Below are positions 3,563 to 60,084 of a stretch of DNA of 64,000 bases, piece by piece. The DNA is from a bacterium (lineage in GTDB: Bacteria; Patescibacteriota; Minisyncoccia; Phycocordibacterales; UBA5272): NCBI GenBank assembly GCA_043765155.1, contig JAYUJP010000022.1:5077-69076 (forward strand), read 5' to 3'. The translations under genes were made by a program, and so were the position numbers. The stretch's first letter is position 1. Each line of letters opens with the position of its first letter. The notes under the pieces were generated by a model, which worked only from the letters and a program-made list of their open reading frames with translations, had not been told where the DNA came from and made no database searches.

Positions 3563-5389
3563 ATGGACCGCATCAGAAATTTCTCAATCATAGCCCATAT
3601 TGATCACGGTAAGTCCACACTTGCTGATAGGTTACTTGAGGTGACAGGGACCATCGACAAGCGTAACATGCAGGATCAGGTACTAGATAGCATGGAGCTA
3701 GAGAGGGAAAGAGGTATCACCATTAAGATGACTCCAGTTAGGCTAGACTATACTAATAAAAAGGGAGAAAAATATATTTATAATCTTATCGACACTCCGG
3801 GGCATATAGACTTTTCATATGAGGTATCGCGCTCACTGCGCGCTGTGGAGGGGGCGCTATTGCTAGTCGACTGTACTCAGGGTGTGCAGGCGCAGACTAT
3901 GACGGTGCTAGAGATGGCGCGTGAGGTAGGACTAACTATTATCCCAGTACTAAATAAAATAGATTCGCCACTTGCCAATATAACTGAGACCGAAGATGAG
4001 ATTATCAAGCTCTTAAAATGCGAACGTGCTGATATTATGCGTGTAAGCGGTAAGACTGGCGAGGGAGTCGCTAGCCTTCTTGAGGTTATAGCAGACAGGG
4101 TACCTGCTCCAAAAGAAGGAGGAGCTACTTCTCCTGAAAAAAATGAAAACAAAAACATAGCGAGCTCAGCTATTTCTAATAGGGGACTTATTTTCGACTT
4201 TGAATACTCTAATCATCAAGGAGTAATTATATATTTGCGTGTACTAGACGGGTCTATTAAAAAGGGTGACGAGTTAAAATTTATAGCTAGTGATTATAAT
4301 TTTGTAGTCCGCGAAGTAGGAACTTTTAAGCCTAAAAAAGTAGAATGTGACAAAATAAGTGAGGGTGAGGTGGGATACATTGTGACTGGTATTAAGGAGC
4401 CAGGAGTCGCACGCGTCGGAGATACTGTGACTATGAGGTCACGCCCTATGGAGGCATTTCCAGGTTATGCATCACCGCGCCCACTTGTGTTCGCATCTGT
4501 GTATCCAGAGTATCAAGAATATTTTGACGACCTACGCCGCGCTCTAGATCGCTTGCGTTTATCTGACTCGTCATTAACTTATGAAGAGGAGCAGTCAGGA
4601 GCTCTTGGTCGCGGATTTAGATGCGGATTCTTGGGAATGCTTCACATGGAAATAATTACAGAGAGATTAAGAAGAGAATTTGATTTAGAGCTGATAGTAA
4701 CTAGTCCGTCTATTACATATGAAGTCACCACGCGTGATGGTGTAACTGAAAAAGTGTATACTCCTATACATTTCCCAGATTTCGGTGAGGTTACAAAAGT
4801 CCGCGAGCCGTGGATACTCACTACCATTATAACCCCTCATGATTATGTCTCAAATATTATGGAGCTATGTCATGAGTATGAAGCGAGTGTATTTGAAATG
4901 GAGGACTGGGGTGATAATAGGGTCAAGATTATTTTGGATATGCCGCTGCGTGAGCTGATGCGTAATTTCTTTGATACTATAAAGTCAGCAAGTAGTGGTT
5001 ACGCCAGTGTCGCCTATGAGGGTAATGACATGCGCGACGCGCAGGTGACTCGTATGGATATATACATAGCCGAGGAGCGCGTAGCCGCATTTTCAAGAGT
5101 AATACCAGAACACAGGGTAGACAAAGACTGTGACGAGGCAGTAGAAAAACTTTTTAAAATACTTCCTAGTGAGTGGTTTAGAGTAAAAATCCAAGCCTAT
5201 GTAAAAGGGAGAATAATCGCAAGCCGTAGTAAGTCTGCGCTAAGTAAAGACGTAACTGGTCACCTGTACGGAGGAGACATTACCCGTAAAATGAAGCTAC
5301 GTGAGAAGCAAAAAGAAGGTAAAAAGCGTATGCAGGCTGAGGGTAAAGTTCATATTAGTCACGATACTTTTCTCAAGATGATGAGGTAA
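3563..5389 (+). CDS. lepA: Elongation factor 4 (LepA)
   Basis: MDRIRNFSIIAHIDHGKSTLADRLL, DTPGH and NKID GTPase motifs, plus the LepA-specific C-terminal domain. It carries a ~40-aa low-complexity insertion (PAPKEGGATSPEKNENKNIASSAISN). Confidence 0.95.
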   Translation: MDRIRNFSIIAHIDHGKSTLADRLLEVTGTIDKRNMQDQVLDSMELERERGITIKMTPVRLDYTNKKGEKYIYNLIDTPGHIDFSYEVSRSLRAVEGALLLVDCTQGVQAQTMTVLEMAREVGLTIIPVLNKIDSPLANITETEDEIIKLLKCERADIMRVSGKTGEGVASLLEVIADRVPAPKEGGATSPEKNENKNIASSAISNRGLIFDFEYSNHQGVIIYLRVLDGSIKKGDELKFIASDYNFVVREVGTFKPKKVECDKISEGEVGYIVTGIKEPGVARVGDTVTMRSRPMEAFPGYASPRPLVFASVYPEYQEYFDDLRRALDRLRLSDSSLTYEEEQSGALGRGFRCGFLGMLHMEIITERLRREFDLELIVTSPSITYEVTTRDGVTEKVYTPIHFPDFGEVTKVREPWILTTIITPHDYVSNIMELCHEYEASVFEMEDWGDNRVKIILDMPLRELMRNFFDTIKSASSGYASVAYEGNDMRDAQVTRMDIYIAEERVAAFSRVIPEHRVDKDCDEAVEKLFKILPSEWFRVKIQAYVKGRIIASRSKSALSKDVTGHLYGGDITRKMKLREKQKEGKKRMQAEGKVHISHDTFLKMMR

Positions 5390-25779: not shown

Positions 25780-27846
25780 ATGACAAAAATAGAAGCTAAA
25801 AATAGAATAGAAATACTAAGCTTGGAGCTAGAAAAACATAGAGTATCATATCATGTTAATGACTCGCCCGCTATAAGTGATGAGATTTATGATTCTCTTA
25901 TGAGCGAGTTATCTAGATTAGAAGTAGAGTATCCAGAATATAATAGCAGTACTAGTCCGACCAAAAGAGTGGGAGGAGAAGTGTTGGATAAATTTGAAAA
26001 AGTCACCCACGCTTTTCCGCAGTGGAGTTTTGATAATGTTTTTAATTTTGAAGAATTAGAAGAGTGGAACACTCGTAATAAAAAAATTATAGATAAATTA
26101 GAAAATAAAAATGACATCACATATAATCCTAGCTATATGTGTGAGATGAAAATAGATGGGTTAAAAGTTATATTAACTTATAAAAGTGGCGCGCTATCGC
26201 GCGCCGCCACTCGCGGCGACGGTGTAATGGGTGAGGACATAACAGAAAATGTAAAAACTATAAAGTCCATACCGTTAATTTTAAAAGATAAAACAGACGT
26301 TACAGTAGTAGGTGAATGTTGGTTAGAAAAGTCTGAGCTGATTAAAATAAATAATGAGCAAAAAAATCTCGGACTAAAAGAATATGCTAATACGCGCAAC
26401 CTGGCAGCTGGTACGTTACGCCAGCTTGACCCAAAAATAGTAGCTAAGAGAAATCTAAAAATATTTGCTTATCGTGTAGAGTCTCATACTCCAGAAATCG
26501 TTCAAGAAGCTTTTGATTATATGGACAAATTAAACACTCAAGAAAAAGTATTAAAATTTTTAGAGGAGCTAGGATTTTTAGTTAACAGGGAGAGAAAACT
26601 ATGTAAAAATCTAAAACAGGTGCAGCAATATTATGAGTCACAAGTTAACAAAAGAAATAGTTATGAGTATGGTGTTGATGGTATGGTTATAAAAATAAAT
26701 GAAAATAAGATTTGGGACGAATTAGGTTATACAGCCAAAAGCCCAAGAGCGGGAGTCGCTTATAAGTTTCCAGCTGAAGAGGCAGCTACTATTATTGAGA
26801 GTGTGATATTTCAAGTAGGTAGGACGGGGGCAATAACGCCTGTTGCTAATCTGCGCCCAGTACTACTAGCTGGGTCTACTGTCTCGCGTGCTACACTGCA
26901 TAATCAGGATGAAGTAAATAGACTGGGGGTCAAAGTACATGATACTGTTATGCTACGCAAAGCAGGGGATGTGATACCAGAGATATATGAAGTGGTGTTA
27001 AGCTTGCGTGATGAAAACAAATCACAAGATATTATCTTTCCAAAAAATTGCCCAGTATGTAAAAGTGTACTCATAAAAAGAGTAGTCGGAAAAGAAGAGG
27101 GTGTAAAAATATTTTGTGATAATAGTGAATGCGAAGCTAAGCATATAGAAAACCTTATACATTTTGTCAGCAAAAAAGCTATAAATATAGATGGCATGGG
27201 GCAAAAAATAATAGAGGAATTTTGCACATTAGGAATTGTAACTGATTATGCTAGTATATATAATCTTAAAATAAGTGACATAGAAAATCTTTTTGGTTAT
27301 GGACTAAAAAGCGCAGAGAATATAATAAGCAGTATAGATAAGAGTAGAGAGGTAAAATTAAATAATTTTATTTACTCTCTGGGTATACTGAGTGTGGGCG
27401 AGACTACTGCTAAGGATCTGGCTAAGTATTTTGTGGACCTAGCCGCGCTTCGCGCGGCTACAATTGAGAATATAATCCCTATTCCTAACATGGGCCCAGT
27501 TACAGCCAAAAATATATTTGAATATTTTAGAGACAAAAAAAATATAGATAAACTAGAAAGATTACTCAAAGAGATAAAAATAGAAAATGCTCAGCCTATT
27601 TTTAGCCAAACAAGTAAAATATTAGATAGTAAAACTTTTGTAATAACAGGATCTTTTGCTATATCTCGTGACTTTTTAAAAGATAAAATAGAAAGGAGTG
27701 GGGGGCGAGTTTCTGGATCTGTCTCGTCTAAGACTAATTATCTGCTAGCTGGCGATAATGCTGGGTCAAAATTATCAGATGCTGAAAAGCTAAATATAAA
27801 AATAATTAATGAGGAAGACTTTCTAAAAATGTTAGGAGAGTTATAA
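25780..27846 (+). CDS. ligA: NAD-dependent DNA ligase
   Basis: Adenylation motif CEMKIDGLKV (KxDG), OB fold, Zn finger Cys cluster (CPVCKS...C..C), HhH, and C-terminal BRCT (FVITGSF). Confidence 0.95.
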   Translation: MTKIEAKNRIEILSLELEKHRVSYHVNDSPAISDEIYDSLMSELSRLEVEYPEYNSSTSPTKRVGGEVLDKFEKVTHAFPQWSFDNVFNFEELEEWNTRNKKIIDKLENKNDITYNPSYMCEMKIDGLKVILTYKSGALSRAATRGDGVMGEDITENVKTIKSIPLILKDKTDVTVVGECWLEKSELIKINNEQKNLGLKEYANTRNLAAGTLRQLDPKIVAKRNLKIFAYRVESHTPEIVQEAFDYMDKLNTQEKVLKFLEELGFLVNRERKLCKNLKQVQQYYESQVNKRNSYEYGVDGMVIKINENKIWDELGYTAKSPRAGVAYKFPAEEAATIIESVIFQVGRTGAITPVANLRPVLLAGSTVSRATLHNQDEVNRLGVKVHDTVMLRKAGDVIPEIYEVVLSLRDENKSQDIIFPKNCPVCKSVLIKRVVGKEEGVKIFCDNSECEAKHIENLIHFVSKKAINIDGMGQKIIEEFCTLGIVTDYASIYNLKISDIENLFGYGLKSAENIISSIDKSREVKLNNFIYSLGILSVGETTAKDLAKYFVDLAALRAATIENIIPIPNMGPVTAKNIFEYFRDKKNIDKLERLLKEIKIENAQPIFSQTSKILDSKTFVITGSFAISRDFLKDKIERSGGRVSGSVSSKTNYLLAGDNAGSKLSDAEKLNIKIINEEDFLKMLGEL

Positions 27847-27874
27847 AATATAAGTTTTGTCTGAGATATTTTTA

Positions 27875-27883
27875 TGTTATAAT
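27875..27883 (+). promoter_or_regulatory. Extended -10 promoter TGTTATAAT
   Basis: Motif lies 20 nt upstream of the gatC ATG. Confidence 0.4.
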
Positions 27884-27903
27884 ACTTGTAATAAATTAAA
27901 AAT

Positions 27904-28185
27904 ATGATCACCACAGAAAATATGTTATATCTAGAAAATCTTGTAAAAGTAAGACTAGACGCAGAAACAAGAGAAAAGTACAGACTTCAGATGGGAAGTA
28001 TTTTAGATTATGTCCAAGAGATAACAAGTTTAGACCTTGGTGATGTAATTCCTGATCATACGCATAAGAATATTTACAAAAATGACATAGTAGACCAGGA
28101 TACAGATCATATAAAGAGAGCATTAGCAAATGCGCCTGACAAAATAGGTAATCTCTATAAAGTGGCTCAGGTTATAAAGCAGTAA
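27904..28185 (+). CDS. gatC: Asp/Glu-tRNA amidotransferase subunit C
   Basis: 93 aa; VKVRLDAETREKYRLQMGSILDYVQEI matches the GatC pattern, directly upstream of gatA. Confidence 0.75.
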   Translation: MITTENMLYLENLVKVRLDAETREKYRLQMGSILDYVQEITSLDLGDVIPDHTHKNIYKNDIVDQDTDHIKRALANAPDKIGNLYKVAQVIKQ

Positions 28186-28204
28186 AAATTTTTTAATAAA
28201 AAAT

Positions 28205-29644
28205 ATGAAAAGTCTAATACAAGATATAAATAATAAAATAAAGTTAAAAGAAAAGTCAGTGCGTGATATCGTGGACGAGTATGTAAAAGTTTTAAAAGAG
28301 AAAGATGTTGAGATAGGCGCTACTCTTGAGATATTTGATAATGATTATATATCTGAGCAGATAGTATCCGCTGAGCACATGTTTGCGTCCAATACTAGTA
28401 CATTAATGACAGGTGTGCCAATAGTTATAAAAGATAATCTCTGTATCAAGGGGAAAATAGCTAGCGCTGGATCAAAAATGCTTGAAAATTATGTCTCGAC
28501 TTATGACGCCACTGTTATCAAAAAGTTAAAAGAGGCTGGCGCTATTATTATAGGTAGAGCCAATATGGACGAGTTCGCAATGGGTGGTAGTACAGAAAAT
28601 AGCGCCTACAAAAATACTAAGAATCCGCTAGACATTACCCGTGTACCTGGTGGCTCATCAGGAGGATCAGCAGCGGTGGTCGCCATGGGCGGAGTCCCGG
28701 TCTCACTTGGATCTGATACTGGCGGATCAGTGAGGCAGCCAGCAAGCTTTACGGGGTTAGTAGGTCTCAAGCCAACATACGGATCAGTGTCACGTTACGG
28801 ACTTATAGCTATGGGGTCATCACTTGACATAGTGGGTCCATTTTCACATAATGTGCGTGACTGCGAGATAATCTTTGATATTATAAAAGGCGAAGATGAC
28901 AAAGATGCGACTACTATAAAATCTTTTGAACTAGAAAAAATAAAATCAGAAAATAAAGAAAAAGAAAAAGGAGACAAAAAATTAAGAATAGGTGTCCCAA
29001 GGAAATTTGTAGACCAAGATGGAGTAGATAAAAATATCAGAGATAACTTTTACAAAACTTTGGAAGTATTAAAATCAAAAGGTTATGAGATTGTGGACAT
29101 AGAAATAAATAATATAGAAAAAGCTTTGTCTGTATATTATATACTTATGTTCGCAGAAGTTTCGAGCAATCTAGCTCGTTTTGATGGGGTGCGTTATGGT
29201 AAAAGTGTCGCAGGAGAAAAGCCAGAAGAAAGTATGATACTCAGCCGTTCAGCAGGCCTTGGTGATGAGCCGATAAGAAGATCACTTATGGGAGCTTATG
29301 TTCTCAGTAGCGGTTATTATGATGCGTATTATAATAAAGCTATCAAAATGCGTGACTATCTAAAGTCAGAATTTGCAAAAGTTTTTGAAAATGTTGACCT
29401 CATAGCTACGCCAACCTCGCCGGTATTTGCTTGGAAATTTGGAGAAAAGTCAGATCCGCTCGCTATGTACCTCGCTGATATATTTACAGTGCCCGCTAAT
29501 ATTGTGGGCGTACCAGGTATAAGTATACCTACAGGAAAAGTTGAAGTAGAAGAGTATAAAAATTTAAATTATGGTGTACAATTTTTAGCTAGCTGGCACT
29601 GTGAGGATAAACTGTTTAAAACTGGCTATGATTTAGAGGTTTAA
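28205..29644 (+). CDS. gatA: Asp/Glu-tRNA amidotransferase subunit A (amidase signature family)
   Basis: GGSSGGSAAVVA amidase signature, Ser-cisSer-Lys context, and GatA length. Confidence 0.9.
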   Translation: MKSLIQDINNKIKLKEKSVRDIVDEYVKVLKEKDVEIGATLEIFDNDYISEQIVSAEHMFASNTSTLMTGVPIVIKDNLCIKGKIASAGSKMLENYVSTYDATVIKKLKEAGAIIIGRANMDEFAMGGSTENSAYKNTKNPLDITRVPGGSSGGSAAVVAMGGVPVSLGSDTGGSVRQPASFTGLVGLKPTYGSVSRYGLIAMGSSLDIVGPFSHNVRDCEIIFDIIKGEDDKDATTIKSFELEKIKSENKEKEKGDKKLRIGVPRKFVDQDGVDKNIRDNFYKTLEVLKSKGYEIVDIEINNIEKALSVYYILMFAEVSSNLARFDGVRYGKSVAGEKPEESMILSRSAGLGDEPIRRSLMGAYVLSSGYYDAYYNKAIKMRDYLKSEFAKVFENVDLIATPTSPVFAWKFGEKSDPLAMYLADIFTVPANIVGVPGISIPTGKVEVEEYKNLNYGVQFLASWHCEDKLFKTGYDLEV

Positions 29645-29743
29645 TATATTATAATTGAGTTATAATATAAATACTTATATATAAATTTATATAATGTTTT
29701 TTAATTTTGTATTTTTTACAAATATATTAACTCATAACAATAC

Positions 29744-31192
29744 GTGCAATCTTTTAACTTTAATTCTATTTTCGATACCTTTTATGATGGCATGCTCTGG
29801 ATAAAGTATGTAGTTTATTTTAATATATTAGGTTATGACAAAGATAGGTATCTTAGTCTAGTTCAAGGCGAAGCTTCAGATGGTTTACGTGATAGGGGCT
29901 GGCTTACAGGGTCAGGCTCATTATCCGCCGGTCCTGGTGATAAAATATCAGACCTGCTTGCTAGCTCAGGCATAGATATAAAAAGAGATAATGACGGTGA
30001 TGGCATACCAAATCTAAAAGATGATTATCCAAATGATCCAAATAATTTTTCTAATGAAAAGATAAAGGAAATATTTTCAAGTGAGCTATCTTGGGGTGAT
30101 AATGTGCGAGATTTTTTTGGACTTAACGTTATGGATAGAGACGGTGATGGCGTACCAGATAGCGCAGAGAGTCTGCGAGGTACAGATCCGCTCAAAGTCG
30201 ATACTGACGCTGATGGAGTTTATGATGGGGAGGAAGTATTTAAAAATCTAGACCCTAAAAATCCAGATACCGACGGTGACGGGGTTATTGACGGGCGTGA
30301 CGCTCAACCACTCGACAAATATAAGAGTATATTCGAAAGTGACGTAGATACTGATGGTGACGGCGTGGGTGATAGATTTGAAAAAATATTAGGCACTGAT
30401 TCAAATATGACTGATACCGATAGTGACGGACTGCGTGACGGCATAGACCCTAATCCAAGTATAGCTGAAAATAAAATACAAGCTGCTGCAAATATTTACG
30501 GCACATTTTCAGATGGGCTAAGCTTAGTAATACAAAATAAATTTTTAGCCTTTATGGCTGATGTTTTGACTATTTTAACTTTATTTACTATACCACTTTC
30601 TATATTTATATTTTTAAAATGGTATTGGAAGTTAAAAGAAGCTAATGAGCATTATTATCATCTTTTTCACAATGCTTTTGGATATAAAGAAGCTTTCGGA
30701 CACGCTTCACATGATTATATTAATGATCTTAAGACTCACAAAAATGAAAGCAAAAGTGATGATTCTCATATACACAAAGAGGCTCATAAAAATGAAAATT
30801 TGTCATACAAGCAAGAACATAAAAGCCAGAGTGCTAATGTCTTAGAAAATAACATTTCTACTGCACCAAAAGAAAAAGATTACATTAATAACCCAAAATG
30901 GGCCATAATAAAAAGCTATATGAGTGAGAGTCATCAAGTCTTTTGGCGTATGGGTATTATCGAGGCTGATGCGATGCTTGATAATATTTTGATAGAAAGG
31001 GGCGCCTTGGGGCGAGATCTGGGTGAGAGGCTTAAGAGTATAAGACTAGAAAGTATCAATAGTGCCTGGGAGGCACATAAGGTCAGGAATAGAATATCAC
31101 ATGAAGGCTCAAATTATAACTTATCAGAGAGAGACGCCAGGCTAACTTTTAATAATTATGAGAGGGTATTTATAGAGTTAAAGGTTATTTAA
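29744..31192 (+). CDS. Membrane protein with thrombospondin-type-3-like Ca-binding repeats, a His-rich segment and a C-terminal HEPN-like (Rx4H) domain
   Basis: At least six DxDxDGxxDxxD repeats (DNDGDGIPNLKDD, DRDGDGVPDSAE, DTDADGVYDGEE, DTDGDGVIDGRD, DTDGDGVGDRFE, DTDSDGLRDGID). A central TM follows (FMADVLTILTLFTIPLSIFIFLKWYW), then a His-rich stretch, then the C-terminus ...AHKVRNRISHEG. Confidence 0.6.
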   Translation: MQSFNFNSIFDTFYDGMLWIKYVVYFNILGYDKDRYLSLVQGEASDGLRDRGWLTGSGSLSAGPGDKISDLLASSGIDIKRDNDGDGIPNLKDDYPNDPNNFSNEKIKEIFSSELSWGDNVRDFFGLNVMDRDGDGVPDSAESLRGTDPLKVDTDADGVYDGEEVFKNLDPKNPDTDGDGVIDGRDAQPLDKYKSIFESDVDTDGDGVGDRFEKILGTDSNMTDTDSDGLRDGIDPNPSIAENKIQAAANIYGTFSDGLSLVIQNKFLAFMADVLTILTLFTIPLSIFIFLKWYWKLKEANEHYYHLFHNAFGYKEAFGHASHDYINDLKTHKNESKSDDSHIHKEAHKNENLSYKQEHKSQSANVLENNISTAPKEKDYINNPKWAIIKSYMSESHQVFWRMGIIEADAMLDNILIERGALGRDLGERLKSIRLESINSAWEAHKVRNRISHEGSNYNLSERDARLTFNNYERVFIELKVI

Positions 31193-32105: not shown

Positions 32106-32675
32106 ATGTATACAGCAAAAGACTTTACACACTTGTTAGGGTTAGCAGGATTCTCAGATACAATGCTAACCAATCATTTTACTTTATATAATGGTTACGT
32201 TAACAATATAAACACTATGCTGACAAAGTTTGAAACTTTGGATCAGGCCTCTATGGAGATGTCAGAGCTTAGTAGGAGATTCGCTTGGGAGTATGACGGC
32301 ATGAAAATGCATGAGTTATATTTTGGTAACATGACCAAGGAGAAGACAGAAATAAACAAAGAGGGTGAATTATACAAGAGGCTAATCTCTACTTATGGTA
32401 GTTATGAAAAATGGGTAGAGGTACTAAAGGCCAAAGGTATGATGCGTGGTATAGGCTGGGTTATGCTAAGCGTGGATACCGATAATGGAGAATTATACAC
32501 TCACTGGATACGCGAACATGAGATAGGTCATATGGTAGGTTCAAAGTCACTTTTGATTATGGATACTTGGGAGCATGCCTATATGACTGATTACGGACTT
32601 AAAAAGGCAGACTATATAAATGCGTTTATAAGTGCCATAGACTGGAATGTAGTTGAAAGTAGATATAAAGCGTAG
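32106..32675 (+). CDS. Fe/Mn superoxide dismutase family protein (divergent)
   Basis: C-terminal DTWEHAYM (D-x-W-E-H ligand motif), central MHELYFGNM and N-terminal HFTLYNGYVNNINTML all match SOD. The first His ligand region is altered (NHF instead of HH). Confidence 0.65.
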   Translation: MYTAKDFTHLLGLAGFSDTMLTNHFTLYNGYVNNINTMLTKFETLDQASMEMSELSRRFAWEYDGMKMHELYFGNMTKEKTEINKEGELYKRLISTYGSYEKWVEVLKAKGMMRGIGWVMLSVDTDNGELYTHWIREHEIGHMVGSKSLLIMDTWEHAYMTDYGLKKADYINAFISAIDWNVVESRYKA

Positions 32676-33035: not shown

Positions 33036-34235
33036 ATGGCAGCAACAATGGAAAACGCAATATATTGGATAGAAATAGAAAAGTTAGTTCCTAATCCATA
33101 TCAGCCCAGAAGAGAATTTGAAGAAGTGGCCCTTAATGAATTAGCCGATAGTATAAGGCAATATGGAATACTACAGCCTCTTGTTGTGTCTCGTTTTGAG
33201 CAAGATAGTGAGGACGGGGGTATGGAGGTGGTATATCAGCTCATAGCAGGTGAGAGGCGTATGAGGGCGAGCAGGCTTGCTGGTCTATCTCAGGTGCCAT
33301 GTATTATACGCATAGGTGATGATAACAGGGATAAGCTAGAGCTCGCTATAATTGAGAACGTTGTGAGGGCCGACCTTAATGCTGTAGAAAGGGCGATGGC
33401 ATATCAGAGGTTAGCTGACGAGTTCAAAATGAATTGGACTGAGATAGGTAAAAAAGTTAGCAAGAGCCGTGAATATGTATCCAATACCGTCCGTATACTT
33501 ATGCTGCCCCAAGATATACTTGATGGGCTTTCAAAAGGTAAAATAACAGAGGGTCATACTAGGCCGCTCCTGATGCTTATAGACAGGCCTGATGAGATGA
33601 TGACACTCTTCAAAGAGATGTTAATCAGGAAAATGACAGTACGTGAGGCAGAGAAGATTGCCAGAAAGATAGCTTTTGAAAAGACCAGGAAAAAGAGTAC
33701 CATGATGACTCCAGAGGTTGTGGATATGGAGGAGGTAATAGCAAGCGCCTTAGGCACTAGAGTGACCATAGATCCAAAGGAAAGAGGAGGCAAGATAACT
33801 ATAGAGTACTTTACCCATGATGAGCTGATGTCATTGTCACGTCTACTACGTAGTGCGGGTGAAAACAAAACTCATAAGGGTATGTTTGATATTATCCGTG
33901 AAGACAATAATAATAATGCTATAGGGGGCTATAATCCAGAAAATATTTTTGTTGCTGAGCTGGTTAATGATATAACACCAAGCATGGAGACAGATAATAT
34001 TTTGGTAAGCACTGACATGAATAATATTTCTATAAGTTCTGACATGCAAAATGTCTCTGCAAGTATAGAAGTAGAAAATATTTTGCCAAGCGTAGAGGCT
34101 CAAGATATATTACCAGTAGGATATGACGCTAATGAATCAGCTCTTGCTGTTAATGATATGACAAAAGATGAGGAGAGGGAGATACAAAACGCTCAAGATG
34201 ATGATCTTTATAATATAAATAAGTTTACTTTATAA
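33036..34235 (+). CDS. parB: ParB/Spo0J-family partition protein with a repetitive C-terminal extension; no adjacent parA
   Basis: ParB box GERRMRAS, an HTH region, then about 130 aa of Asn/Ile/Ser-rich quasi-repeats (ILVSTDMNNISISSDMQNVSASIEVENILPSVEAQDILP). Confidence 0.8.
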   Translation: MAATMENAIYWIEIEKLVPNPYQPRREFEEVALNELADSIRQYGILQPLVVSRFEQDSEDGGMEVVYQLIAGERRMRASRLAGLSQVPCIIRIGDDNRDKLELAIIENVVRADLNAVERAMAYQRLADEFKMNWTEIGKKVSKSREYVSNTVRILMLPQDILDGLSKGKITEGHTRPLLMLIDRPDEMMTLFKEMLIRKMTVREAEKIARKIAFEKTRKKSTMMTPEVVDMEEVIASALGTRVTIDPKERGGKITIEYFTHDELMSLSRLLRSAGENKTHKGMFDIIREDNNNNAIGGYNPENIFVAELVNDITPSMETDNILVSTDMNNISISSDMQNVSASIEVENILPSVEAQDILPVGYDANESALAVNDMTKDEEREIQNAQDDDLYNINKFTL

Positions 34236-54327: not shown

Positions 54328-55638
54328 ATGTATATAAAATATAAAAAAATACATTTTATAGGAATTGGTGGTATAGGAATGTCAGCTCTTGCTAGATATT
54401 ATAAGTCTCAAGGTGTAATTATTAGCGGTAGTGACTCATCAGAAAGTGAGCTAATAGATAATCTTAGATCTGAGGGTATTATTGTAAATATTAGCGAAAG
54501 TTCTGATAATGTAGCGGATGACATAGACTTACTAGTCTATACTATTGCTATTAAGAGTGATAACGTGGAGCTATTAAAAGGTTTAGAACTAGCCAATAAT
54601 AATGAAAAGAGCTGTAGAGTGTTAACTTATCCACAAGCACTCGGAGAGATGTCACGTGAAAAAAAAGTGATAGCCGTATGTGGTACTCATGGCAAGACCA
54701 CAACTACGGCGATGGTATATAATGCCCTGCAAAATGCTGGATTAGATGTCTCTATGATACTTGGTTCACTAATTAAGGATAAAAATAGTGAAAACAAAAT
54801 GACTAATTATATACACGGCAATAGTGACTGGATAGTTATAGAAGCTTGTGAGTACAGGAGAAGCTTTTTAAATTATAATCCTGAGATAATATTAATTACT
54901 AATATCGATGCCGATCATCTAGATTATTATAAAGACATCGATGATATTGAAAATGCTTTTAGAGAGTTTATAGACAGGTTATCAGAAAACGGAAAAGTTA
55001 TAATACATAAAAACGAAGAGAATATTCTCGAAAAATTAGAAAAGAAAAAAGTTGTAAATAAGATTATTTGTGAAGATGTTATAAATCTAGAAGATGTAAA
55101 ATTAAGTGTACCAGGCGAGCATAATAGAAAAAATGCGCAGCTTGTTGTCGCTCTGGGTGATATGCTTAGTCTAAATAGAGAAAAAGTTTTAGAGGGCCTT
55201 AAAAATTTCGCTGGTACATGGAGAAGGCAAGAATATAAAGGTAAGCATTTTGATATGGAGTGTTATGATGATTATGCTCATCACCCATCAGAAATAAAAG
55301 CAACTTTGCAAGCCTTTAGAGAAAAATGTCCTGATAAGAAAATCATAGCTTGCTTTATGCCTCATCTTTATAGTAGAACCAAGATATTATTTGATGACTT
55401 TGTAAATAGCTTTGAAGATGCTGACGAAATTATACTATTGCCAATATACGCAGCGCGCGAGCAAGTAGATATTAGTATAAGTAGCGACATGTTAGCGCGT
55501 GAGCTTAATAACATAAATAAAAAGGCTGTATCACTTGCTAATATAAATACTTTGAAAGACTATTTAAAAATTCATAGTGACAAAGATAATGTAGTAGTAA
55601 CTATGGGTGCGGGAGATATTTATAAACTCTACGAATAA
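54328..55638 (+). CDS. murC: UDP-N-acetylmuramate--L-alanine ligase
   Basis: HFIGIGGIGMSALA N-terminus, GTHGKTTTT P-loop, and Mur ligase middle and C domains. Confidence 0.9.
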   Translation: MYIKYKKIHFIGIGGIGMSALARYYKSQGVIISGSDSSESELIDNLRSEGIIVNISESSDNVADDIDLLVYTIAIKSDNVELLKGLELANNNEKSCRVLTYPQALGEMSREKKVIAVCGTHGKTTTTAMVYNALQNAGLDVSMILGSLIKDKNSENKMTNYIHGNSDWIVIEACEYRRSFLNYNPEIILITNIDADHLDYYKDIDDIENAFREFIDRLSENGKVIIHKNEENILEKLEKKKVVNKIICEDVINLEDVKLSVPGEHNRKNAQLVVALGDMLSLNREKVLEGLKNFAGTWRRQEYKGKHFDMECYDDYAHHPSEIKATLQAFREKCPDKKIIACFMPHLYSRTKILFDDFVNSFEDADEIILLPIYAAREQVDISISSDMLARELNNINKKAVSLANINTLKDYLKIHSDKDNVVVTMGAGDIYKLYE

Positions 55639-55714: not shown

Positions 55715-57202
55715 ATGAAAGCCTACTTAATATACCCGCATCAATTATACAATCCAGATAGCATAAAAAATCTTTTACTTGAGAGCAATTTTGACTATAT
55801 TGTACTTGCTGAAGAGTTTTTATATTTTAAGCATTTTTATTTTCACCCTATCAAGGTAAAATTCCACATAGATACTATGCATGCTTATAAGTTAGAATTG
55901 GAAAAATTTTTAGAAAAAACAAAAATAAAAAATATTAAAATTATTTATATAAAATCAGAAGAGCTAGGTAGTACAGAAAAGCTGGCACAATTATTAAAAA
56001 ATGAGTACAAAATTAAAAATATAATCACTCATGACCCGACAGATGTATGGTTAACAAAACACATGTCTGCTGAGTGTAAAAAGTTAGATATAGAAATAGA
56101 GTATATGGACTCGCCTAATTTTATTTTCTCAAAAAAAGATATAGAAGACTTTTACGTTGTAAAAATAGGTGAGAAAAATAGTATCAAAAAAATGCTTATG
56201 AATACCTTTTATATACATTCTCGTAAGAAGTTAAATATTTTGATAGCTGGCGGAGAAGAGAAAATAGATTATAAAAACATGATGCCGATTGGAGGCAAGT
56301 GGAGCTATGATGTTGAAAATAGAAAAAGTATACCCAAGGGTATGGAGACGCCAGACGAGTCACATTTTAAATGGGCGACTACAAGAGCTGAAGCAGAAAA
56401 AGTAATGAATCAATTTTTCAAAACAAAATTTGCAATGTTTGGTGACTATGAGGATGCTATTGTGAGTGATAAAAATTTTCTTTATCATTCAACACTCTCT
56501 GCGTATATAAATGTGGGACTACTTGACCCAAAACAAGTTGTAAACGAGGCTCTAAAATTTTATGAGAATAGTAAAAAAGAAAACAAAAAAGATGAAGGTG
56601 AGATAAAATTAGCAACGATAGAAGGATTTGTAAGGCAGATTATCGGCTGGAGAGAGTATATGAGAATAGTTTATATTTTGAAAGGTGATGAGATCAGGAC
56701 TAAAAACTTTTTTAAATTTGACAAAAAATTACCTTATACTTTTTGGACAGCAACTACAGGTAACGATGTTATAGACAAGACAATAGCCAAAACTATTAAG
56801 TATGCCTATAATCACCACATAGAAAGACTTATGATACTGGGTAATTATATGTTACTCAAGGAATATAATCCAGATGATATATACAAGTGGTTCATGGAAA
56901 TGTATATAGATGCTTATGACTGGGTGATGGTGCCAAATGTATACAGTATGAGCCAATACGCTGACGGTGGTATTATAACTACTAAGCCGTACGTCTCAGG
57001 CAGCGCTTATGTAAAAAAGATGAGTGACTACAAAAGTAGTAGTAAAAAAGAAATAAAATCAGAAGGATGGGACACAGAGTGGGACAATTTATACTGGGAC
57101 TTTATTTATAAAAATAGAGAAAAGTTTAAAAATAATTTCCGTATGGCCATGATGGTTAATATGTCTATCAAAAGATTTGAGAAAAATAATATAAAAGAAT
57201 AA
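55715..57202 (+). CDS. Cryptochrome/photolyase-family protein of the FeS-BCP / (6-4) photolyase PhrB type, lacking the Fe-S cysteines
   Basis: Near-identical blocks to A. tumefaciens PhrB: GFVRQIIGWREYMRIVY, HHIERLMILGNYMLL, WFMEMYIDAYDWV, KPYVSGSAYVKKMSDY, and NLYWDFIYKNREK. The positions of the four PhrB [4Fe-4S] cysteines are not Cys here. Confidence 0.85.
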   Translation: MKAYLIYPHQLYNPDSIKNLLLESNFDYIVLAEEFLYFKHFYFHPIKVKFHIDTMHAYKLELEKFLEKTKIKNIKIIYIKSEELGSTEKLAQLLKNEYKIKNIITHDPTDVWLTKHMSAECKKLDIEIEYMDSPNFIFSKKDIEDFYVVKIGEKNSIKKMLMNTFYIHSRKKLNILIAGGEEKIDYKNMMPIGGKWSYDVENRKSIPKGMETPDESHFKWATTRAEAEKVMNQFFKTKFAMFGDYEDAIVSDKNFLYHSTLSAYINVGLLDPKQVVNEALKFYENSKKENKKDEGEIKLATIEGFVRQIIGWREYMRIVYILKGDEIRTKNFFKFDKKLPYTFWTATTGNDVIDKTIAKTIKYAYNHHIERLMILGNYMLLKEYNPDDIYKWFMEMYIDAYDWVMVPNVYSMSQYADGGIITTKPYVSGSAYVKKMSDYKSSSKKEIKSEGWDTEWDNLYWDFIYKNREKFKNNFRMAMMVNMSIKRFEKNNIKE

Positions 57203-57203
57203 C

Positions 57204-58544
57204 ATGCAAAAATTTGAAACAGATTATAACAAAATAATAGAGAGGATAAAAAATATAGATCCAGTCATTTATGCTAGGACCAGAAATAGCCTTGATGGTG
57301 ATGTGAGTTATATATCAAGATACCTCACTCATGGAGTTGTCAGTCTAAAATTAGTAAAAGATATTACCAATAAAATCTCTAATACAAATCTAGAAAATAA
57401 AAATTACTCTGATAATATAAAATATGAAAAATGGAATCAGGAGTTAGCTTGGCGGGAATATTTTCATAGGGTGTGGCAGTCACTCGGCGACGATATATTT
57501 TCTAGTATAAGACAGGATCAGAGTAACGTTAAGCATGCAAGTGGTATACCGATATCTTTTGCAAATCTTTCTTCTTATAGTAAAATAGAAGAAGTAAAAA
57601 AAGATAATAAAGAGAGTGGAAAAGAAAACTCAGAACTAGATAGTACTGGTGTAAAAAGCCTAGATAGAAATATAGAAAAACTAATAGAGACTGGTTATAT
57701 GCATAATCACGCCCGTATGTGGACTAGCATGCTAGCTACAAATATAGCCGGCTATGCTTGGAGTGATTGTAGCCGCTGGATGTATTATCACCTAATCGAT
57801 GGTGATCTGGCTAGTAATACCCTCAGCTGGCAGTGGATATGCTCTACATTTTCAGCAAAGCAGTATGTTGCTAATCAAGAGAATATAAATAAGTATGACA
57901 GGGACAATGCACAGCGTAAAACTTATCTGGACTGTGAATATGAGGACTTATATGACGCAGTATTACCAGAAAGCATGATAGCTAGTTTTGATATACAAAA
58001 ATATTTTGATGATGATTTTGAATTAGATACCCAAGCGTTAAATAAATACTCTATAGGAAATATTTTAAAAGATAAAAATAAGGAAGGAGAAAATGAAAAC
58101 AAAAAAGAAGAAAATAAATTAGAATTAGAGCAAGTGTTAAACTTTGAAAATAATTTTGATAAAAATAAAAATACTATAATATATAGCATGTGGAACCTGG
58201 ATCCGACTTGGTATGAGGATAAAGGTGACAATATAAACAGAATTTTATTTATAGAAAAGTCAGCATTAAAAGACTTTCCTATGAGCACCAAGCGTATAGA
58301 ATTTGTACTAGAAATTACTAAAAATATCTCAGATAAATATAAGAATTTTCAGATACTATACGGAGAAATTAACGAGTTAGAAGGTCTTGTTACAAAAGAT
58401 AAGCTTGATAACAGTATCTCACGTGAGTATCCGCTTTGTAATCACTGGGGTAACTTGGTAGAAGATAGAGAGTGGCTATATCCTAATTACTCTTGGAGTA
58501 GCGGCGGCTTTATGTCATTCTGGTCAAAAGTTAATGGGAGGTAA
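57204..58544 (+). CDS. Photolyase-family protein with permuted domain order (FAD-binding domain N-terminal, alpha/beta photolyase-like domain C-terminal)
   Basis: Residues 20-235 align with the photolyase FAD domain (YARTRNSLDGDVSYISRYLTHGVVS; LAWREYFHRVW; TGYMHNHARMWTSML...YHLIDGDLASNTLSWQW). The C-terminal 150 aa resemble the N-terminal alpha/beta domain (IIYSMWNLDP...ILFIEKSAL...MSTKRIEFVLEITKNISDKYKNFQILYGE). Confidence 0.65.
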   Translation: MQKFETDYNKIIERIKNIDPVIYARTRNSLDGDVSYISRYLTHGVVSLKLVKDITNKISNTNLENKNYSDNIKYEKWNQELAWREYFHRVWQSLGDDIFSSIRQDQSNVKHASGIPISFANLSSYSKIEEVKKDNKESGKENSELDSTGVKSLDRNIEKLIETGYMHNHARMWTSMLATNIAGYAWSDCSRWMYYHLIDGDLASNTLSWQWICSTFSAKQYVANQENINKYDRDNAQRKTYLDCEYEDLYDAVLPESMIASFDIQKYFDDDFELDTQALNKYSIGNILKDKNKEGENENKKEENKLELEQVLNFENNFDKNKNTIIYSMWNLDPTWYEDKGDNINRILFIEKSALKDFPMSTKRIEFVLEITKNISDKYKNFQILYGEINELEGLVTKDKLDNSISREYPLCNHWGNLVEDREWLYPNYSWSSGGFMSFWSKVNGR

Positions 58545-60084
58545 AAATATGAATACAAAATTAGAATACAAAAAATATTTTGAAGGTAAAAAAATAACTA
58601 AGCAGGGATTTGGTATACTCGGACGCGGTATTGGAGTTGTAAAGTTTTTGCTTGAAAGCGGAGCACAAGTACTTGTTACAGATACAAAGCCTGAATCAGA
58701 CTTCTTAGAAAATATAAAAGAGGTGACTAATTTTATGTTAGAAAAAAATATATCGAGCAGTAAAGTTTCGTATGTATTTGGCGAGCACAGAATGCAAGAT
58801 TTTGTAGAATGTGACTATGTGGTGCAGGCTAGTGGCGTGCCAAAAGATAATATATATTTAAAACATGCGCGTGATAATAATGTAAAAGTTTATCAAGAGA
58901 GTAGCCTTTTTTGTGAGATTATAAGAGAATACAACAAAAACATATTTGAAGAAATTTCAAAAGAAAATAAAATAAGCATAATAGGAATCACGGGTACAAG
59001 AGGTAAGACTACAACAACATTTTTGATAAAGAAAATAATAGAAGATTGTATAAATAACGAGAATAGAAGTAAAGAAATTTCTGAAAGTATTAACTTAGAC
59101 AATTTTGACTTAGAAAAAAATAGAGGAAATACCAGAAAAGTATATTTTGGTGGTAATGTACAAGGAGTAGCAACCCTTGAGAATTTAAAATATATAAAAA
59201 GCGGTGATGTGATTGTGATGGAGCTGGACTCCTGGATATTACAGGGGTTCAGAGATATAAATTATAGTCCAGAGATAGCAGTATTTACTACTTTTATGGC
59301 TGATCACATGAATTATTATAAGGGCGATATGCAAGATTATTTTCTAGATAAAGCTAATATATTTCTGTGTCAAAATTTTGATGACATATTCATAACTACT
59401 GATAAAATAGAGGCAGATATAAAAAAGTATTTAAAAATAGAAGAGTATGAGAATATAAAATATAATAAAATATTTTTAAGTGACAAAGAGATCTGTGGAA
59501 TTAAAAATAACTTTACTAGTAAGCTAATAGGAGCGCACAATGACGTTAATGTTGCTCTTGCCATTAGTGCTTGTAAAGTATTTGGTGTTGACGATATTAG
59601 TATACAAAAATCTCTTGAAAGCTTCACGGGCGTAGCAGGGAGATTAGAATTTTTAAAAGAATTAGATGGAGTTAAATATTACAATGACACGACCTCAACA
59701 ACACCGGACTCTCTTATAGTTGCTTTAGAATCTTTTAAAAATGAAAATATAATTTTAATTTGTGGTGGTAGGGATAAAGAGCTAGATATGACACTTGCCG
59801 CAGAAAAAATAATTAATTTTAAAAATGAAAACAAAATAAAGCAGATAATATTACTGAGTGACGATACTACTACGGGGACAAAAAAGCTGATAGAGCTATT
59901 TAGCCCCCTCCATTTTGAAGATTATTTGGAGTGCGAGAATCTAGAAGTTGCAGTACAGGCCGCGCGAAGCGCGGCCACAAGTGGCGACATAATCCTATTC
60001 TCGCCAGGCTTTGCATCTTTTGGTATGTTCCAAAATGAATACGACAGAGGAGATAAATTTAATCAAATGGTAAATAGTTTGTAG
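58534..60084 (+). CDS. murD: UDP-N-acetylmuramoylalanine--D-glutamate ligase
   Basis: N-terminal Rossmann GFGILGRGIGVVKFLLESGAQVLVTD, P-loop GITGTRGKTTTT, and a Mur ligase C domain. The true start may be the ATG at 58549. Confidence 0.85.
   Translation: MGGKNMNTKLEYKKYFEGKKITKQGFGILGRGIGVVKFLLESGAQVLVTDTKPESDFLENIKEVTNFMLEKNISSSKVSYVFGEHRMQDFVECDYVVQASGVPKDNIYLKHARDNNVKVYQESSLFCEIIREYNKNIFEEISKENKISIIGITGTRGKTTTTFLIKKIIEDCINNENRSKEISESINLDNFDLEKNRGNTRKVYFGGNVQGVATLENLKYIKSGDVIVMELDSWILQGFRDINYSPEIAVFTTFMADHMNYYKGDMQDYFLDKANIFLCQNFDDIFITTDKIEADIKKYLKIEEYENIKYNKIFLSDKEICGIKNNFTSKLIGAHNDVNVALAISACKVFGVDDISIQKSLESFTGVAGRLEFLKELDGVKYYNDTTSTTPDSLIVALESFKNENIILICGGRDKELDMTLAAEKIINFKNENKIKQIILLSDDTTTGTKKLIELFSPLHFEDYLECENLEVAVQAARSAATSGDIILFSPGFASFGMFQNEYDRGDKFNQMVNSL

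Follow-up and report, generated by a model that had tools for sequence, protein, structure and literature searches.

The window analysed here is a 64,000-nt stretch of Patescibacteriota DNA (contig JAYUJP010000022.1 of assembly GCA_043765155.1, positions 5,077 to 69,076 of the forward strand). At window positions 29744–31192 it contains an open reading frame (ORF) that is on the plus strand, as are all features of the encoded protein described below, starts with GTG and, with the stop codon included in these coordinates, encodes a protein of 482 amino acids (aa). From N- to C-terminus this protein consists of a helix, an ectodomain of TSP3-type repeats, a transmembrane (TM) helix, a His-rich linker and a HEPN domain. 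The gene is a member of a large, distinct and unnamed protein family of the Patescibacteria (candidate phyla radiation, CPR) that lies within the known HEPN superfamily and is encoded directly downstream of gatA, one of the genes for the tRNA-dependent amidotransferase.

The C-terminal domain and its signature

We accept the C-terminal domain (aa 375–482, 108 aa, 30866–31189) as a member of the HEPN superfamily because of the layout of its helices, the convergence of its relatives on HEPN families of Pfam, and the conservation of three residues, R, N and H. In an AlphaFold2 (AF2) model, the domain has a predicted local distance difference test score (pLDDT) of 93 and forms a four-helix up-down bundle similar to solved HEPN domains, with helices at positions 10–19, 24–44, 64–83 and 88–104 of the domain model. 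According to Anantharaman et al. 2013 (PMC3710099), HEPN domains carry an acidic residue in their second helix, an insert that separates helix 2 from helix 3, and an Rx4H motif where helix 3 ends; all three were found at the corresponding places. The insert occupies positions 45–63 of the domain model and includes a short helix at 52–57. The acidic residues of helix 2 (positions 24–44) lie in E407-A408-D409 (30962–30970), in which E407 and A408 are invariant, and D409 nearly so, in alignments A3 and A4, the latter being an alignment of 53 TSP3-type orthologs. The signature R448-N449-R-I-S-H453 (31085–31102), which is the R448-N449-x3-H453 of the C-terminal sequence (...EAHKVRNRISHEG / ...AWEAHKVRNRISHEG), is in the last third of the helix at 64–83 and is followed by an EG loop. 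Neither alignment shows any variation at its R, N and H. The R-x4-H spacing that was pointed out in the initial annotation is a conserved one: of 120 full-length orthologs, 119 have RNxxxH and the remaining sequence is truncated, and a pattern search found a WxAHxxRN core in 152 of the 153 family proteins retrieved.

Neither single-sequence nor profile searches with the C-terminal domain returned a meaningful match in Pfam, NCBIfam, PADLOC or PDB sequences, and the domain is not covered by any Pfam or NCBIfam model. Matches to CutA, Top7 and GDH, all with E ≥ 0.06, were dismissed as chance. When 38 relatives were scanned one by one against Pfam, sub-threshold matches were obtained to HEPN_Swt1 (20 relatives), RiboL-PSP-HEPN (9), Cthe_2314-HEPN (8), DUF4145 (4, best E 5.1e-5) and Ymh (4). 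DUF4145 (PF13643) and HEPN_Swt1 (PF18731) share the RNxxxH type of motif with the family, and the matches of the relatives are collinear with nearly the whole profile; for example, aa 358–464 of relative P0121 align to positions 9–108 of the 115-position Swt1 model, with 17.4 bits against a cutoff of 27.5 (E 1.3e-3). The query and most family members score below the Pfam thresholds. Hence, of the DUF4145-like HEPN domain proposed initially, the superfamily assignment stands, on fold and motif, whereas placement in DUF4145 or HEPN_Swt1 specifically does not, since the gathering thresholds are not reached. A Foldseek comparison of the model with PDB ranked HEPN proteins first, with non-significant E-values (best 0.48). 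The top structural matches include HEPN toxins, HepS, AbiV and AbiA; KNTase, ANT and MtlR are also among the matches.

Ectodomain, membrane anchor and N-terminus

The putative calcium-binding region of TSP3-type repeats (aa 82–237, 29987–30454) is predicted to be extracytoplasmic. It matches the Pfam model TSP3_bac (PF18884) at 36 bits, above the cutoff of 25 (E 5.9e-9), and contains, by pattern search, exactly six DxDxDGxxDxxD sites, at aa 82, 131, 153, 175, 202 and 224, in agreement with the earlier count of at least six. The Asp residues of these sites are invariant across the 53 aligned orthologs, and the region is well defined in the AF2 model (pLDDT about 90). In NCBIfam, the local matches fall in the thrombospondin repeats of two myxobacterial surface proteins, CglD and MtsD.

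The TM helix (aa 268–292, 30545–30619) is assigned from hydropathy and from an AF2 helix that spans aa 266–309. The only strongly hydrophobic segment of the protein, aa 273–291 (Kyte-Doolittle 2.19), lies inside this helix, as expected from the single central TM helix noticed at first, and its C-terminal flank is rich in K and R (KWYWKLK), in line with a cytoplasmic C-terminus. The helix is followed by a juxtamembrane linker (aa 293–374, 30620–30865) that is predicted to be cytoplasmic and is largely disordered, with pLDDT below 50 for aa 329–368; the mean pLDDT of the full-length model is 80.8. Directly after the TM helix is an EHYYHLFH motif that is common to the orthologs. The low-complexity stretch that had been described as His-rich starts at H303 and has 9 His in 49 aa, a composition that is kept in the TSP3-type orthologs (median His fraction 0.15 vs 0.01 in the wider family). 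The EHYYHLFH motif and the His-rich linker (alignment A4, columns about 320–400) are restricted to the TSP3-bearing sub-clade, and may represent a cytoplasmic metal-binding element.

Flanking charges in the family allow the topology to be predicted. For members with two TM helices, the mean number of K and R residues per 15-aa flank is 2.2 before and 1.1 after TM1, and 1.2 before and 3.5 after TM2; for members with one TM helix it is 0.8 before and 3.4 after. These values obey the positive-inside rule if the HEPN domain is cytoplasmic and the variable segment is outside, and the outside placement of the loop agrees with the extracellular-type domains found in it (TSP3, SH3_3). For the query, the HEPN domain is thus predicted to be cytoplasmic and the TSP3 repeats to be on the opposite side of the membrane. 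Of the surface sensor with an intracellular effector that was originally envisaged, it is this charge-based topology that survives, not the phage-defence function attached to it. Neither of the two findings that would speak against the architecture was made: the domain has a HEPN fold with a conserved Rx4H motif, and the repeats are accompanied by a TM helix and are not predicted to be cytoplasmic.

In the public gene call for an identical protein (P0172, at loci L082 and L083), translation begins at M17 (ATG 29792) and yields 466 aa, omitting 16 N-terminal residues (29744–29791). These residues are conserved among orthologs, with S3, F10 and Y14 invariant, and we therefore regard the GTG at 29744 as the true start. 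They include part of a conserved N-terminal helix (aa 6–28, FNSIFDTFYDGMLWIKYVVYFNI, 29759–29827), which is a 23-residue helix in the full-length AF2 model (pLDDT about 87–92) and in which S3, just ahead of it, and F10, Y14, L18 and F26 are invariant in alignment A4. It overlaps a weakly hydrophobic segment at aa 12–30 (Kyte-Doolittle 0.81). The initial annotation was correct that the N-terminus has no signal peptide; it does have this conserved and confidently modelled helix, a candidate for a weak TM1, a signal anchor or an interfacial helix. Relatives have their first TM helix at this place: of the 141 family representatives in which one or more TM segments were detected, 84 have a clear TM1 here. 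The helix is therefore probably a weak signal anchor, which would answer the concern over the missing signal peptide.

An ORF in another frame (29694–29804, plus strand, MFFNFVFFTNILTHNNTCNLLTLILFSIPFMMACSG*) overlaps the start of the gene. It is hydrophobic and signal-peptide-like, and is probably a by-product of AT-rich sequence. We considered a frameshift that would fuse this frame, from the ATG at 29694, to the gene as a signal peptide, and rejected it, since it is the N-terminus read in frame from 29744 that the orthologs conserve.

A family linked to gatCA

A word-indexed homolog search with the domain alone returned three relatives, and an exhaustive profile search, seeded by an alignment of three relatives of 180–195 aa, was needed to reveal the family. 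This search found 2,879 cluster representatives at E ≤ 1e-3, 616 of them at E ≤ 1e-30. The family signature is an invariant (A)WxAHKxRNxxxH. When a single genome of each GTDB species was scanned for the signature peptide, confirmed relatives were found in at least 597 species genomes. The best 80 of these all have Patescibacteria-type labels (Patescibacteria, Paceibacteria, Parcubacteria, Saccharibacteria, Kaiserbacteria, Nomurabacteria, Taylorbacteria) or are unclassified metagenome-assembled genomes. Family members are unnamed in their sources or are called "hypothetical protein", and we found no description of the family in the literature on HEPN domains with Patescibacteria/CPR or with membrane anchoring. 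No relatives were found among 2.9 million viral contigs of IMG/VR.

The invariant part of the family is the HEPN domain, which is at the C-terminus in 149 of the 150 best representatives listed (the exception is P0108). What precedes it varies. Two hydrophobic segments are found before the HEPN domain in 84 of these 150 representatives and one in 57; where there are two TM helices, the loop that separates them is 1 to 497 aa long. The outer segment is nearly absent in forms of roughly 190 aa, and some long forms have repeated bacterial SH3 (SH3b) domains in the loop (SH3_3 with 42.7 bits in P0099, weaker in four others). In the clade of the query, the outer segment is the six-site TSP3 module, and is combined with the His-rich juxtamembrane linker. 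This sub-clade includes at least 120 full-length orthologs (37–60% identity, full coverage) from Patescibacteria, Moraniibacteriota and Paceibacterota. They share the strongly conserved N-terminus MYSLxxDYxFNxVYDxLLWIKY... and a WDGLRDRGW motif, together with the six TSP3 sites, the TM helix, the EHYYHLFH motif, the His-rich linker and the HEPN domain. Two short members, P0114 and P0116, were considered as possible TM-less forms and are uninformative: their contigs are 0.7–1.8 kb long and lack gatA/gatB context, and P0116 is located at the very edge of its contig.

In the window, the gene follows ligA (25780–27846), gatC (27904–28185) and gatA (28205–29644), all on the plus strand and identified by Pfam on identical public contigs; gatA ends at 29644 and the ORF starts at 29744. 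The block ligA-gatC-gatA (25780–29644) has the same order in most of 81 related loci. Directly upstream of the family gene, on the same strand, gatA is found in 77 of these 81 loci, mostly in the order ligA-gatC-gatA-X, where X is the family gene. Counted from the gatA stop codon to the earliest start codon that the family gene could use, the median gap is 12 bp, and in 45 of the 77 loci it does not exceed 20 bp. The combination of the C-terminal signature, an upstream TM segment and a gene position right after gatA is thus found in the query as in the family. In one locus (L018, 3952–7795) the order is gatC-gatA-X-gatB, with gaps of about 8 and 20 bp. The gatB signature (GLE[IV]H...) was not found in the flanks of the other 80 loci, suggesting that gatB has moved away from the operon in most lineages, and no gatB was found among the ORFs of 400–520 aa in the window. 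Since the family gene is fixed right after gatC-gatA and is sometimes flanked by gatA and gatB, it is almost certainly co-transcribed with the genes for the tRNA-dependent amidotransferase. There is no conserved downstream partner; the largest downstream cluster is present in 11 of 81 loci. In the closest relative from the genome collection (L002), gatA and the family gene are separated by an additional ORF of 183 aa (4264–4815) that begins with a hydrophobic N-terminal segment; the resulting gap of 648 bp is the only one above 300 bp among the 77 loci.

A probable ortholog is listed in a study of Southlakia epibionticum (Wang et al. 2023, Cell 186:4803, PMC10633639). According to Tables S1/S2 of that study, SEML1_0535 is a 420-bp gene for a "hypothetical protein" of 139 aa, overlaps both gatA (SEML1_0536) and gatB (SEML1_0534), and is flagged as core family and Patescibacteria enriched, with families taken from Meheust et al. 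Its transposon sequencing (Tn-seq) calls are GD/GD/ES, i.e. growth-defect/essential. ProtNLM names the product a "DUF4145 domain-containing protein", and DPAM assigns aa 26–135 to the HEPN-type ECOD domain e1wtyA1. We found no discussion of this gene in the searched text of the article. Like the family, SEML1_0535 encodes a HEPN-type fold and is located right after gatA, in the gatC-gatA-X-gatB order of L018; unlike the query, it apparently has no TM helix or ectodomain. We consider it a probable ortholog on the basis of position and fold, not of sequence. In Table S1 of the same study, the GatB and GatC families (SEML1_0534, SEML1_0537) are flagged as Patescibacteria enriched and that of GatA is not, which hints that the CPR amidotransferase is a divergent variant, a point relevant to a partnership with the HEPN protein.

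Downstream of the gene, the window contains an SDR gene, an Fe/Mn superoxide dismutase (SOD)-like gene, a tRNA-Leu gene and parB. The SOD-like ORF (32106–32675, 189 aa) has Sod_Fe_C as its sole match at E ≤ 1e-5, the N-terminal domain being undetected at that threshold. The ParB homolog (33036–34235, 399 aa) has ParB_N, HTH_ParB and ParB_C domains, as seen on an identical public contig, and a long, repetitive, acidic, low-complexity C-terminal tail (…ISISSDMQNVSASIEVENILPSVEAQDILPV…). Further away, at 55715–58544, are two adjacent photolyase-related ORFs, one of the DPRP family (495 aa) and one with FAD_binding_7 (446 aa), flanked by two Mur-ligase genes (54328–55638 and 58534–60084).

Function of the gatCA-linked HEPN proteins

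What is the function of a membrane-anchored HEPN protein whose gene is fixed next to gatCA? The best explanation, to which we assign a probability of roughly 60%, is a HEPN protein with a core function and vertical inheritance that is probably an RNase and whose ectodomains vary with the lineage (TSP3 here, SH3b elsewhere). The HEPN domain, anchored in the membrane through one TM helix or two, would be a metal-independent endoribonuclease at the inner membrane face. If it behaves like known HEPN RNases, two copies would dimerise and together build a composite R/H active site. That the enzyme is active is suggested by the conservation of R, N and H and of the acidic residue of helix 2. Many HEPN nucleases cleave tRNA; together with the linkage to gatCAB, this points to a translation-related RNA as the substrate, with tRNA as the leading candidate. 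The ectodomain may localise, oligomerise or regulate the HEPN domain, following a logic like that of Ire1. Such a function would be a core one, not that of an abortive-infection toxin, and the gene may be essential in this organism.

Several observations weigh against this explanation. The query itself has no Pfam HEPN match, even at E ≤ 10; four-helix bundles are common, and the best Foldseek E-value against PDB (0.48) is not significant. The N-terminal helix is only weakly hydrophobic (0.81), which raises the question of how the 240-aa acidic region would cross the membrane. Conserved gene order may reflect inheritance rather than function, and Firmicutes, too, have ligA and gatCAB close together. 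The orthology of SEML1_0535 is based on position and fold, and its Tn-seq phenotype could be a polar effect on gatB. Furthermore, because SEML1_0535 has 139 aa and apparently no TM helix, the core function may not depend on a membrane anchor.

An alternative explanation is a non-catalytic HEPN domain that binds RNA, nucleotides or proteins as an accessory to the GatCAB transamidosome and could, for instance, tether tRNA amidation or translation to the membrane. Tight operon linkage to gatC-gatA, and sometimes to gatB (PMC10633639), is consistent with this possibility, as are the Patescibacteria-enriched, i.e. divergent, GatB and GatC families of S. epibionticum and the use of HEPN folds as substrate-binding domains of nucleotidyltransferases (the KNTase and ANT matches, and the name of the ECOD domain assigned to SEML1_0535) or as regulators (MtlR). 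However, strict conservation of R, N, H and the acidic residue of helix 2 is the pattern of catalytically active HEPN families (PMC3710099). We therefore regard an accessory role as possible and rather doubtful.

The initial annotation had proposed a one-protein phage-defence or abortive-infection (Abi) module, in which a surface TSP3 sensor would detect phage or envelope damage and switch on a toxic HEPN RNase. The HEPN fold, the conserved catalytic-type motif and the sensor-TM-effector architecture would all suit such a module, many HEPN proteins are Abi or toxin-antitoxin toxins, and HEPN toxins, HepS, AbiV and AbiA are among the structural matches. The distribution and context of the family argue strongly in the other direction. 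In 77 of the 81 loci, spread across Patescibacteria, the gene comes right after gatA, the median gap being 12 bp, and the neighbours in the window are housekeeping genes (ligA, gatCA, SDR, SOD, parB); a survey of related neighbourhoods, which had been suggested as a check, thus revealed gatCA linkage and not a defence context. The query has no PADLOC match, no relatives were found in the IMG/VR viral contigs, and, instead of the patchy distribution over islands or mobile elements expected of Abi and anti-phage systems, a fixed gatCA-linked position was seen in these 77 loci. In S. epibionticum, the probable ortholog SEML1_0535 is assigned to a core family, and its Tn-seq calls make it a fitness or an essential gene. 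The proposal is thereby disfavoured, and we consider it improbable; a weaker version, that of a stress or signal module, may apply. Nor does the locus have the layout of a HEPN-MNT toxin-antitoxin pair. Solved HEPN-MNT toxins (PDB 5yep, 7ae2, 8xdj) have 7–11% identity with the query domain, which differs from them in being membrane-anchored and encoded at a housekeeping locus. The window has a single copy of the family gene, flanked by gatA upstream and the SDR gene downstream, with no adjacent antitoxin or MNT gene.

It is similarly improbable that the synteny is a frozen accident and that the query is a surface protein in which the ectodomain is the key part, acting in adhesion or calcium-dependent binding, with the HEPN domain as a generic cytoplasmic anchor. 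Adhesion-type modules are indeed present, namely SH3b domains and TSP3 repeats of the kind found in the gliding and cohesion proteins CglD and MtsD, but the ectodomain is variable and almost absent in most family members, whereas the HEPN domain is the part that does not change. Least likely is a pore resembling that of Csx28, the type VI-B CRISPR accessory protein, in which TM-plus-HEPN oligomers depolarise the membrane and the HEPN domain is a structural scaffold: at its simplest, the layout of the two proteins is the same, an N-terminal TM helix and then a C-terminal HEPN domain (bioRxiv 10.1101/2021.11.02.466367), but Csx28 has a divergent HEPN domain and a CRISPR context, whereas the query family has a conserved catalytic-type motif, variable ectodomains and, as neighbours, gatCA and housekeeping genes rather than CRISPR/Cas13b; Csx28 is not among the structural matches listed; and a depolarising pore is hard to square with a constitutively encoded core gene.

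The concept of a HEPN protein with a membrane sensor is already known. Three bacterial groups that combine TM segments with HEPN domains, from Proteobacteria and Planctomycetes, are described by Anantharaman et al. (PMC3710099): a TM region with a WP signature joined to DUF4145; an alpha-helical domain followed by a TM segment and an Abi2/Swt1 HEPN domain; and a HEPN domain followed by two TM helices and a Zn-ribbon. Control of RNA cleavage at the inner membrane face by an external or TM sensor was proposed there, by analogy with Ire1. These groups share with the query family the TM segment(s) and a cytoplasmic HEPN domain with an Rx4-6H motif. As described, none of them is gatCA-linked, Patescibacteria-wide or equipped with TSP3/SH3b ectodomains, and the present family is not among them. 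A functional analogy can also be drawn to the KEN domains of Ire1 and RNase L and to C6orf70, in which a sensor domain on the far side of the membrane is connected by a single TM helix to a cytosolic HEPN-type RNase; RNase activity of the Ire1 type depends on oligomerisation (PMC3710099). Ire1 and RNase L differ from the query in having a kinase domain and a circularly permuted HEPN domain within KEN, whereas the query has a canonical HEPN domain, is bacterial and has no kinase. With this analogy in mind, we tentatively raise a bolder version of the core-RNase explanation, one that we would not yet expect to hold: a phylum-wide, probably essential, membrane-anchored HEPN RNase, encoded as part of the gatCA(B) operon, might couple surface sensing (of Ca2+, or of host or cell-wall contact, via TSP3/SH3b) to the cleavage or handling of tRNA or other translation RNA, and so act as an Ire1-like signalling RNase with a housekeeping role in minimal epibiotic cells.

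Prokaryotic HEPN domains are mostly known as toxins or effectors of conflict systems, including toxin-antitoxin systems, Abi systems and CRISPR accessory nucleases. In the present family, the catalytic-type signature of the HEPN domain is fully conserved, and the domain is encoded, throughout a phylum of tiny genomes, by an operon-fixed, vertically inherited gene that neighbours the genes for the enzyme that makes Gln-tRNA and Asn-tRNA. The family appears to be an unusual combination of an apparent core gene, a fixed gatCA(B) association, a membrane anchor and swappable ectodomains. If the bolder, Ire1-like version is true, this would be, to our knowledge, the first core, non-conflict catalytic HEPN protein in bacteria. 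The probable ortholog has a growth-defect or essential phenotype in the only Patescibacteria Tn-seq data set that we found. Since the family has about 2,900 representatives, is unnamed and has no Pfam or NCBIfam model, defining it would improve the annotation of thousands of genomes. If its members are active RNases, they would represent a new CPR-specific housekeeping activity in RNA processing or regulation, and their lineage-variable ectodomains suggest a possible link between the cell surface, which for an epibiont is the interface with its host, and translation.

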